Source of the DNA: a virus
Lineage: Duplodnaviria; Heunggongvirae; Uroviricota; Caudoviricetes
Strand: one strand, 5' to 3'
DNA: 39,698 bases
Virus record (IMG/VR): IMGVR_UViG_2522572021_000013
Positions 21,001 through 24,000 of this stretch are shown piece by piece. Position numbers: made by a program. The stretch's first letter is position 1; the number at the start of each line of letters is the position of its first letter.

Positions 21001-24000
21001 AGACGACCTGCAGATATTGCCATTCCTCCCTCCTCATAACACCGTCGGACAACGCAAATCGTAAATCAGCACGGACACAGAAAACGGCAGCTCCCCCTGA
21101 ATCAGTTCTTCCCGCTCCGCAAGATCCGGATTCCGGTACAGCATCCCGGTCAGTCGCATGGCAGCCCCCTTCATCCGGGTTAATGCCTCGCCCGGGATCA
21201 GTTCACCGTCCTCACGAATCACCTTATCCCGGCTGCCCTGAATGTAGGCCAGCAGCACGGCGGTAGCCTGACGAACCTTGTCCATCAGCATGTCATCATC
21301 CGCGTCATGGTCGACACGCAGATGTGCCTTGATCTCTTCCAGTGTCAGTAATGCCGTCATTTTCCGCCTCCTGCATCCCGTCCACGTTTGGCAGCCAGGG
21401 TCCAGCCTGATGAATGAGCTTCTCCGGGTTTATCACCGGTCATACTGTTGCAGTGCCACAGCGAGCCCCCCCACGTCACCGTATCACCGGGGTGGTAGGT
21501 TTCACCGGCTCTGAACACACCGCGGTAGAGCATCACCGGCAGGGAAAATGTTTTTTCCGTACGCTGGCCACTGCTCTGCCGGACCACCACAGTGAACGAC
21601 CGTTCGCCGGTCATGCTGACGTCAATATCGGCCACCCCGTCAACCAGGCATTCCCATCCCCGCATCCCGTGCGTTTTTTCATACGCCCGCCAGAGTCCGC
21701 CCTGGTGTGTGGCATACGTGCCCCGGGGAAAGGATTTTTGATCGTCAATGGCGGGGATTATTTCCAGTGCCGTGGCATCACGCCCGTCCTGCGGAGCCGG
21801 AAGGGCATTCACCGCCTCCAGAACCGCCTGCTTCAGTACTTCCGGATCGTAATCACGACCGTCACTCGGAGCAGGGATATGGCTTACGGCCTCTTTCACC
21901 ATCTGCTCAAGCATCGGACGCACATCATCGGGGGTGATACTTTTGCCGTCCGCCGGTACCGGAATATTCGCAACCGCATCATTCACCGCCTGCTGCAGTA
22001 CTTCCGGATCATAATCACGACCATCACGCGGAACAGGAATATGGCTTACCGCCTCTTTCACCATCTGCTCAAGCATCGGACGCACATCATCGGGGGTAAT
22101 ACTTTTGCCGTCCGCCGGTACCGGAATATTCGCAACCGCATCATTCACCGCCTGCTGCAGTACTTCCGGATCGTAATCACGACCATCACGCGGAACAGGA
22201 ATATGGCTTACCGCCTCCTTCACCATCTGTTCAAGCATCGGACGCACATCATCGGGGGTAATACTTTTGCCGTCCGCCGGTACCGGAATATTCGCAACCG
22301 CATCATTCACCGCCTGCTGCAGTACATCCGGATCATAATCACGACCATCACGCGGTACCGGAATGGCCCCCACAGCATCATCCACCATCGCCTGCAGAAC
22401 CGGACGCACCTCATCCACCGTCACATGCTTCTGTAATACCGCCGACAGGGAAGTCAGTTTCTCTTCAAACGCTTGTGCCTGCGAGGCCATCTTCCCCTCA
22501 AATGTGCGCTGTAAATCCGCCAGCACCGTGGAGAATTCTTCTCCCAGTGCACGAATAATGGACAGTTCCCGTTCCGTCATTTTCGCAGTATCCCCCTCAA
22601 CATCGCTTTCACCGCACCATGCTCTGTTTCACTGATTGCCTTATTACCGTCAGATGCGCCGTCAGGCAGTTGGGCTGAAACTCTTTTCCCGGACGACGCA
22701 AACGGATCTTCACGGGCATCACGACGGGACAGCGCCTCCAGACTGTAGTTCTGCTGCTGAAGATACAGTGCATCACCGCCGGCAAGGGGCGGCAGGTTCT
22801 CACGTTTACGGGCCTCATTGGGCGTGAGAAGCGTATTTTTCACCGCATCCCCCAGCGTTTTCATGCGCCGTTCGCTGTCCATTCTCAGCAGCGTGGTGAC
22901 GTCAAACTCCGTACTCTCGTTTTCCCCCGTTTCCAGCGCCTCATCCAGTAACAGTTCAATGGACTCAATCAGCGTCTGCAGGCACTGGGAATAATACTGC
23001 TGCTCCAGCGCCTCCACGTTGTCACTGGAAGGTGGCTGGCCAACGCCAATCTTGTAGGCCGGGACACGGAACACCGAACAGACAATTTCAGCGGTCATCT
23101 TCAGTTGTTCCACCGTCTGCGCATCCACCGGTGAAAACGTCATGGGGTTGTATTTTGCCCCGTTGCTCAGAATGGCCGTTTTCCCCGCATTTTCGCCGGT
23201 ATACCCGCTGTCCCAGTTGCTCTTCAGTTTTTTCGCATTTTCTTCCGTAATACTGCCGGGGATCTCAATCACCCCGGACGGCCTGCCGCCATTTCTGAAA
23301 AAAGACGTCGAATTTTCCTGAATATGATGCCCCTGCGTGGCCGCCAGCCCGGCAGCATACACCGGCGGCAGCCCCACAAGCGGATGAAAAAAACAGTTAA
23401 ACCGGTCGTGGATCACTTCCCTGGCAGGCACCGTCACCGCCTCCGTGATCCCGCAGTTCCGGTCCGGTGTAATGCGATAGAACACCTCGCCGTCATCCGC
23501 CACCAGAGGTTCAACCCGGCTCCAGTCCAGAATACGCAGTTCTTTGATCTGCCCCCGGGAGTTACGGATTTTCAGCACCACCGTATTGCCGTGACGCAGT
23601 TTGGCGTTCAGCCACAGTTCAAAAAACTGGATACGATTCTGCTGTGCATTGGGACGACGACAGAGACGGGCAATATCCCCCTGCCGTTTTTCACGGCGGA
23701 TCCCCTGTGTATCCGTCTGCATCAGGCGCAGCCGCATTTTGGCGATATCCTGGGATATCAGCGAAATGCAAGAAAACACCGCATGAAAGGAGAGGACACT
23801 TTCCGGATCGGCTTTCACACCCTGCTGCCAGGCGCCGGCAAAGGGCTCAACCACCGCCTGAAACAGGCTGGTCCAGCCCACCTCTTTTACATCACGTCCT
23901 GATTTCTGGTTTTTTCGGGTTCGTCGCAAAAAGTTCCACATTCGCTATGCTCCGCATCACGTTTCTTTTTCTGACCTGCCGGACGTCGCACCGTGATGTA

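Follow-up and report, generated by a model that had tools for sequence, protein, structure and literature searches.

A segmented repeat protein with a CBM5/12-like knob, encoded beside the portal gene of temperate siphophages, and its possible role as a portal-tethered fibre

SPP1 gp7 and Mu gpF (PF04233) are low-copy, accessory phage proteins with a modular C-terminal part, and their genes lie right after the portal gene, with which they are sometimes fused. T4 fibritin (wac), the lactococcal neck passage structure (NPS) and the neck fibres of A-1(L) are also accessory, are encoded near the neck genes, and are built of an N-terminal anchor, a segmented helical shaft with linkers and a small C-terminal domain. 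Collagen-like phage fibres and decoration proteins (PF01391, e.g. SPP1 gp12) are characterised by G-X-Y repeats, and the type of knob found on X recurs on collagen-repeat phage proteins; alternating helical and collagen-like segments together with a C-terminal knob are a hallmark of trimeric fibres. The P22 portal protein gp1 carries a long C-terminal extension, the barrel, which projects into the head from the crown and is not needed for assembly. In this study, we analyzed a stretch of 39,698 nucleotides from a virus of the Caudoviricetes (IMG/VR virus record IMGVR_UViG_2522572021_000013), hereafter the window, in which the gene next to the portal gene, here called X, encodes a 407-aa tandem-repeat protein that is comparable with each of these systems. 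A degraded lambdoid prophage at the yehV/mlrA site of E. coli O145:H28 RM12581, a strain with a finished genome, matches the window at 100% identity.

With gp7 and gpF, X shares its position directly after the portal gene, the occasional fusion, the accessory character, a probably low copy number and the modular C-terminal part. However, gp7 and gpF are globular and bind DNA, whereas X is predicted to be an acidic repeat or fibre protein with a CBM-like knob, and with neither a Pfam match to PF04233 nor a related PHROG it is not a MuF homologue. The accessory nature, the location near neck genes and the order of anchor, segmented shaft and small terminal domain are common to X and to fibritin and the neck whiskers, but no homology was detected, the helices of X are just ~15-18 aa long, and in several lineages X is genetically fused to the C-terminus of the portal, which fibritin is not known to be. 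Relatives of X resemble collagen-like fibres in their G-X-Y runs and knob type, whereas the uninterrupted G-X-Y repeat of a triple helix (PF01391) is replaced in the window by a degenerate PxPxDG(R/K)D remnant, and X, being coupled to the portal (low copy), differs in its expression from a capsid decoration protein. In P22 the barrel is an integral part of the portal, an unbroken coiled coil of 12 helices, whereas X combines repeats, flexible linkers and a beta knob in a protein that is either encoded separately or fused.

Tandem Repeats Finder (TRF) detected one strong array, at 21823-22364, with a period of 162, 3.3 copies, 96% matches and a score of 986 and free of indels, which is far beyond chance. 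The copies in register occupy 22179-22340, 22017-22178 and 21855-22016; pairwise comparison gave 4, 7 and 9 differences in 162 nt, most of them synonymous, and 1-3 in 54 aa. Each 54-aa module is composed of two related half-units of 25 and 29 aa, in which an amphipathic helix is followed by (I/L)P(V/A)PxDG(R/K), and one diverged half-unit stands on either side of the array (aa 53-80 and aa 243-267). Altogether X contains eight ~27-aa units between aa 53 and 267, a shaft with a net charge of -21 over 215 aa, and behind it a non-repetitive C-terminal domain (aa ~268-407). An earlier note, made from the sequence of the window alone, had reported three near-identical 162-bp copies with diverged copies at their flanks at 21735-22440, an interval that does contain the repeat region; the array, the register comparison and the two diverged half-units bear it out, and so does the translation of X for the (I/L)PVPxDG modules and the unique C-terminal domain that it described. 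Its placement of the gene between portal and connector agrees with the PF04860 portal upstream and the PF05135 gp6-like adaptor downstream. An Ig-like spacer, one of the roles it had proposed, has to be given up, as no Ig domain was found in X by Pfam and the repeats are predicted to be helix-linker units.

Other candidate matches on the repeats were rejected. Sub-threshold Pfam and NCBIfam matches (TetR_C_35, DUF4244, FliG_N, baeRF, Mre11 and rSAM) and PDB matches to designed helical-repeat proteins all comprised 0-1 significant stretches and were attributed to repeat composition. An antisense ORF (open reading frame) of 340 aa at 21414-22436 (plus strand) spans the repeat region; it was dismissed as a gene, being an artefact of a repeat that is free of stops in that frame and lacking independent support.

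In the window, X belongs to a module that encodes TerL, a fusion of prohead protease and major capsid protein (MCP), a 73-aa ORF, portal, X, adaptor and head closure and, behind these, gp10-like and gp17-like proteins, tail tube, chaperones and tape measure. The TGA of the portal gene overlaps the ATG of X in the sequence ATGA at 22577-22580. For a survey of synteny, one genome per species was searched with a profile derived from a 12-sequence alignment, which gave 80 loci from Gamma-, Beta- and Alphaproteobacteria and from Clostridia and Acidobacteria metagenome-assembled genomes (MAGs); the neighbours were identified by iterated hidden Markov models (HMMs) built from window proteins, which recovered this module at nearly all loci, and start sites were inferred. 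The portal gene was present on the contig in 75 of the 80 loci. X followed directly downstream as a separate gene in 72 of these 75, usually with the adaptor behind it, and in 70 of the 72 the portal stop and the X start overlapped (-1 to -41 nt, mostly -4, -1 and -8). Two of the 75 loci carried portal and X as a single ORF with long Pro/Asp/Thr-rich linkers (Pantoea, 1248 codons; Brevundimonas, 616 codons). The order portal-then-X was also found in Erwinia, Klebsiella, a metagenome, Salmonella phage FSL SP-016 and Rhizobium phage RHph_X2_26. Among the exceptions, ~3.7 kb separated portal and X in a Sphingobium MAG (L135), and several kb were inserted between X/adaptor and the head-closure or gp10-like genes at two other loci (L121 and L123).

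Independent in-frame fusions of portal and X were observed in at least three lineages, namely the E. coli allele described below, Pantoea and Brevundimonas. In E. coli, a tract of five G (G5) near the portal stop gives two genes, as in the window, and a tract of six (G6) gives an 859-aa portal-X protein, as in phages 2851 and vB_EcoS-783R2. Both states occur in phages isolated as particles: the genes are split in Salmonella FSL SP-016 and Rhizobium RHph_X2_26 and fused in 2851 and 783R2. SD-like (Shine-Dalgarno-like) AGAGGA or AAGGGG motifs were also seen in the last portal codons of other genera. Moraxella phage Mcat4 and Burkholderia phage vB_SBP39 possess this type of head module without X, with portals 42-45% identical, an otherwise matching gene order and the portal gene followed straight by the adaptor. 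X is therefore accessory and dispensable for such a head. Portals that are accompanied by X end in a conserved amphipathic ...AVKAM(L/I)RG(I/F)L motif, which the X-less portals lack. The genomic comparison as a whole shows a gene translationally coupled to the portal gene across many phyla and recurrently fused with it.

The family to which X belongs is large. A HMMER scan of 1.84 billion cluster representatives retrieved 5,665 relatives (50%-identity clusters) that are 214-1237 aa long; for 655, E was below 1e-30. The relatives contain 0-18 helix-linker units at a spacing of 25/29 aa, with ~22 in one Pantoea protein, and 136 of 149 have an isoelectric point below 5.5. Collagen-like G-X-Y runs of 5-21 triplets alternate with helices in 47 of the 149 representatives, where they replace the short PxPxDG linker or extend the protein. 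The C-terminal domain is the most constant part, being present and terminal in 144 of the 149. In this domain, the ratio of nonsynonymous to synonymous polymorphism (pN/pS) was 0.14 for fused and 0.17 for split alleles (range 0.14-0.19), calculated on an alignment anchored on a motif, since the alleles differ at the extreme C-terminus; the domain is under purifying selection of similar strength in both states. The N-terminal motif of X is kept in Enterobacteriaceae orthologues and at the junction of fused ORFs, and two helices (residues 3-26 and 32-50) are predicted there by AlphaFold2 (AF2) run on the single sequence, at low confidence.

AF2 supplied with a 45-sequence alignment gave a confident all-beta model of aa 256-407, with a mean pLDDT (predicted local distance difference test) of 90.9. 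A profile search of PDB sequences returned solely CBM5/12 modules of chitinases and chitin deacetylases and one contractile injection system (CIS) baseplate protein, matched at profile positions 91-132 with E of 0.002-0.02. By Foldseek, 45-48 residues of the knob superposed on chitin-binding domains at 1.1-2.5 A, the matching part being a small three-stranded beta fold of the kind found in these modules. Pfam CBM_5_12 (PF02839) was matched at E<=0.01 by 39 of 45 relatives (best 4.4e-9), and the closest folds in the viral structure library BFVD were the ends of collagen-repeat, ChiC_BD/CBM5_12 and tail-fibre proteins. Five aromatic residues of the domain (W42, W54, Y107, W120 and W138) are highly conserved. 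A Cys pair was considered as a sign of a disulfide; it co-occurs in 30 of 45 sequences, is not strictly paired and was uninformative. The modelled knob of X shows a CBM5/12-like fold. It differs from the chitin-binding modules of chitinases and chitin deacetylases in being embedded in a larger beta domain of ~130 aa, in the absence of a catalytic partner domain and, for X of the window, in a score below the Pfam gathering threshold. The features of the locus are listed in Table 1.

Table 1. Coordinates of gene X, its parts and the adjoining genes in the window
Feature	Position	Strand	Evidence
HK97-family portal gene	22577-23941	minus	PF04860 E=1e-82, TIGR01537 2e-106
G5 tract (GAGGGGGA) in the last portal codons, Shine-Dalgarno-like element of X	22592-22596	minus	junction sequence, allele comparison
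Gene X, 407 aa: N-terminal helix, 8 helix-linker units, C-terminal beta domain	21357-22580	minus	ORF list, translation
N-terminal ~52 aa of X (MTERELSIIRALGEEF..., amphipathic helices), candidate anchor to the portal C-terminal tail	22425-22580	minus	predicted helices, conserved motif
Repeat shaft, eight ~27-aa units (helix + I/L-P-x-P-x-D-G), strongly acidic	21780-22424	minus	translation, charge count
Three near-identical 162-nt (54-aa) tandem copies	21855-22340	minus	TRF, pairwise differences, allele lengths
Conserved C-terminal all-beta domain, aa ~268-407	21357-21779	minus	family comparison, AF2
CBM5/12-like module ending the C-terminal domain, approx. aa 346-398	21387-21545	minus	
gp6-like head-tail adaptor, ATG overlapping the X stop by 4 nt	21034-21360	minus	PF05135, phrog_40

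Our favoured reading, which we hold with about as much doubt as conviction, is that X is an accessory, low-copy structural protein of the portal vertex, probably a trimeric, segmented fibre tethered to the portal. The N-terminus of X would dock on the flexible C-terminal tail of the portal, or be covalently continuous with it in the fused alleles; docking on this tail is suggested by the restriction of the portal-end motif to portals that are accompanied by X. The chains would trimerise into segmented fibres, because a third of the relatives alternate collagen G-X-Y runs with helices and because the same type of knob caps collagen-like phage fibres. Twelve chains per virion would supply up to four fibres, and the low copy number would be set by the coupling to the portal. 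Unequal recombination or replication slippage between the 162-bp units would lengthen or shorten the shaft and homogenise the copies, and the knob may nucleate trimerisation and/or bind a GlcNAc-type (N-acetylglucosamine-type) glycan as a candidate ligand. As to placement, the simplest topology, and our leading guess at about even odds, is that the fibres hang from the portal crown into the head. In all solved portals known to us (SPP1, P22, T4, phi29 and HK97) the C-terminus lies in the crown inside the capsid, and a fused protein would therefore have to carry X into the head interior.

A number of observations weigh against this reading. X of the window scores 20.7 bits over its full length and 24.8 bits over its C-terminal domain against PF02839, for which the gathering score is 26.2; it contains no run of five or more G-X-Y triplets; and the single-sequence AF2 model of the whole protein has a pLDDT of 42, usable for secondary structure alone. 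The design itself, a collagen-like fibre with a carbohydrate-binding knob, is that of a classic external adhesin and fits the interior badly, and a strongly acidic shaft is unfavourable beside packed DNA. The topological argument from the fusions is weakened in that neither the SD-like G tract nor the ATG of X is lost in the fused alleles, and free X may still be made from this internal start; moreover, adjacent overlapping genes are easily fused by 1-nt indels. The pN/pS signal of the fused clade could have come about through recombination with co-resident split-type prophages. A bolder form of the portal-tethered reading, namely a new class of internal fibre with up to four trimeric, acidic, collagen/coiled-coil-like fibres at the portal crown that are released towards the cell envelope at infection and grip peptidoglycan glycans with their knobs, seems rather unlikely to us; we know of no internal, glycan-binding, portal-anchored fibre described so far. 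Finally, X is not reported in the virion mass spectrometry data of the enterohaemorrhagic E. coli (EHEC) phage paper (PRIDE PXD061229), in which podophage proteins alone are reported.

A possible, if doubtful, explanation is an external neck or collar whisker or head fibre, in which trimeric X would project from the head-tail junction and contact surface glycans (lipopolysaccharide, capsule or mucus) reversibly with its knob, the repeat number would tune the reach, and the portal fusions would be tolerated accidents, free X being made from the retained SD and ATG. The architecture is typical of such fibres, with collagen-like runs and a type of knob that is shared with collagen-repeat, tail-fibre and ChiC_BD phage proteins; the acidic shaft, the accessory nature of X, a gene that adjoins the neck genes, the SD-like tract and ATG kept in fused alleles, and a length polymorphism typical of exposed fibres all suit an external position. 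Three independent in-frame fusions to a portal C-terminus that lies inside the capsid in solved structures do not, however, nor does the diversification of the fused clade, which includes inducible phages. Conservation of the knob is also unusually strong, with an identity of about 50-65% across phyla and a pN/pS<0.2, while adhesins specific to a host tend to vary with it. According to the EHEC phage paper, the related plaque-forming phage phi330 binds OmpC through its J-type tip protein; OmpC is thus its primary receptor, X is therefore not the primary receptor-binding protein, and the description of phi330 by transmission electron microscopy mentions no collar or whiskers. The earlier note had named decoration and host interaction among the conceivable roles of X; both are possible, and no clear match to a family with a defined function was found for X.

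It is less probable still that X is packaged cargo or an ejection protein like SPP1 gp7 or Mu gpF, recruited through the portal and leaving with the DNA, released by dissociation or by cleavage of a linker by the prohead protease, so that a periplasmic knob would bind the GlcNAc-containing strands of peptidoglycan. The position right after the portal gene and the occasional portal fusions mirror the gp7/MuF family, the conservation of the knob across phyla suits a universal ligand such as peptidoglycan, and an HK97-type prohead protease is present in the module. On the other hand, X has no sequence similarity to PF04233/MuF, DNA binding of the gp7 kind is improbable for so acidic a protein, the tail tube may not let a folded trimeric knob through, covalently fused X would need cleavage for release and no cleavage site is known, and siphophages already eject the tape-measure protein.

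Regulated switching between free X and the fusion within one phage population, by -1 frameshifting at A_AAA_TGA or by G5/G6 phase variation, would be a very improbable account of the junction. The frames of portal and X would be joined if tRNA-Lys slipped on A_AAA ahead of the TGA, and 26 of 50 related loci carry G5 and 24 carry G6, a ratio of about 50:50. However, the junctions of other genera (CCAAATGAATG, GCCTGATG and ATGCGTGA among others) share no slippery motif, and programmed frameshifting was rejected. A tract of 5-6 nt is short for high-rate slippage, and the G5/G6 difference is largely clade-structured, the fused alleles being essentially one portal lineage that is 4-8% diverged from the split alleles. 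One exception was found, a G5 locus (L031) with zero differences from G6 loci over 1,450 flanking nt, which could be a sequencing error. Rapid phase variation of the tract was likewise rejected; because the alleles follow clades, the split or fused state is a stable lineage trait and not a rapid switch.

That the repeat ORF is the remnant of a decaying, frameshifted portal pseudogene whose true form is the 859-aa protein is scarcely credible, despite the 'frameshifted' call of the Prokaryotic Genome Annotation Pipeline (PGAP), the GenBank records that read 'portal protein, pseudogene' and a prophage that is degraded elsewhere (insertion sequence (IS) insertions, frameshifted gpJ), since both ORFs are intact, X has its own SD and ATG, the split alleles have a pN/pS of 0.17, portal and X are separate, overlapping genes in 72 of 75 loci from diverse species and in isolated phages, and the fused form is derived and confined essentially to one E. 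coli clade.

The pseudogene call looks instead like an artefact that recurs systematically in annotation and has its origin in the fused allele of E. coli. RefSeq/PGAP describes 21357-23941 (minus strand) as a single 'phage portal protein' that is 'frameshifted'. X does not match PF04860 or TIGR01537, unlike the upstream portal ORF, and is not a portal domain; the label 'portal' on X was traced to fused ORFs, from which PHROG 2271 was built, and to the PGAP call. Names of the type 'gp6-like head-tail connector' in Klebsiella, Salmonella and Citrobacter raised the question of an X-adaptor fusion, which was rejected as well, for the full-length member of 405 aa is an ordinary X protein without resemblance to the adaptor. 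Pfam PF28083.1 appears in the precomputed annotations of many long portal-X or X alleles and is possibly a recent Pfam entry for the repeat region. The literature search found no paper on the X protein, the Jabs cryo-EM preprint having no bearing on it, and the family is uncharacterised and systematically misnamed. The overlap and fusion with the portal gene, the collagen-like linkers of relatives, the CBM5/12-like knob and the misannotation as a frameshifted pseudogene go beyond what the earlier note had contained.

Copy-number variation, which that note had expected, was checked across related E. coli prophages and found: X is 245, 299, 353, 405/407, 461 or 569 aa long, in steps of one 54-aa module, and the matching spans in complete genomes are 1224, 1062 and 900 bp. 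Its concern that the repeat might be an assembly collapse found no echo in the finished RM12581 genome, with which the window is identical, and the 1224-bp allele is also the commonest in other complete genomes. For draft genomes the concern is justified: among the database entries for X, 'partial' proteins that end at contig ends make up a very large share, and short-read assemblies therefore do break in X. E. coli genomes contain a median of 5 matching places (multiple prophage copies), which together with the 162-bp repeat routinely breaks such assemblies. Within one allele the modules share variant residues, for example IPVPADGKSI throughout X of the window and IPQPADGKSL throughout another allele, a pattern that we take as the mark of unequal recombination or slippage that is still going on and homogenises the copies. 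The Klebsiella, Citrobacter and Enterobacter orthologues have each amplified near-identical units of their own, as in a Klebsiella orthologue with three 58-aa units and an Enterobacter orthologue with four 29-aa PELPDV units that lack the DG motif. The comparison of these units indicates that recent amplification and homogenisation arose independently in each lineage. The repeat itself is an ordinary, if clean, intragenic tandem amplification.

Elsewhere in the prophage, the major tail (tube) protein (19114-19959, minus strand) has a C-terminal Ig-like domain (Pfam Ig_2, Ig_3 and I-set; E 1e-8 to 1e-6); RefSeq places the start of this gene later, giving 717 nt, and Ig decoration is common on the tail tubes of siphophages. 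A single 645-aa ORF at 24153-26090 (minus strand) combines the HK97-type prohead protease (S78), a coiled-coil linker and the MCP; in relatives from the Betaproteobacteria and in some from the Alphaproteobacteria, protease and MCP are separate ORFs. RefSeq also annotates nleA, a type III secretion effector gene, downstream of the tail-fibre genes (~4514-5755, plus strand), and the tail-tip gene gpJ (~9064-12542, minus strand) as frameshifted, both positions being converted from L173. As a further sign of degradation, most of the early region of the prophage is replaced by ISEc20 and an IS3-family element (~34641-35836 and ~37835-39048, also converted from L173) and by several truncated genes. 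The prophage borders on a truncated transcriptional regulator beside yohO/yehW, at the yehV/mlrA site.

X occurs in roughly one in four complete E. coli genomes, with the long-tailed Stx1- and Stx2c-converting phages among its carriers, and in prophages of many Proteobacteria and beyond, where it is annotated merely as 'portal protein', 'gp6-like connector', 'hypothetical' or 'frameshifted pseudogene'. The marking of intact two-gene loci as pseudogenes by PGAP can make prophages look defective. The recombinogenic 162-bp repeat could serve for typing, as it differs among prophages that are alike in other respects. For structural virology, X is an unexplored component of the portal vertex, and its natural split and fused forms are a ready-made experiment on the placement of C-terminal appendages of the portal and on the role of a carbohydrate-binding module there. 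If the internal-fibre reading were true, many temperate siphophages would carry internal fibres, covalently attached in some lineages, with a shaft length that is tuned by the expansion and contraction of the repeat.

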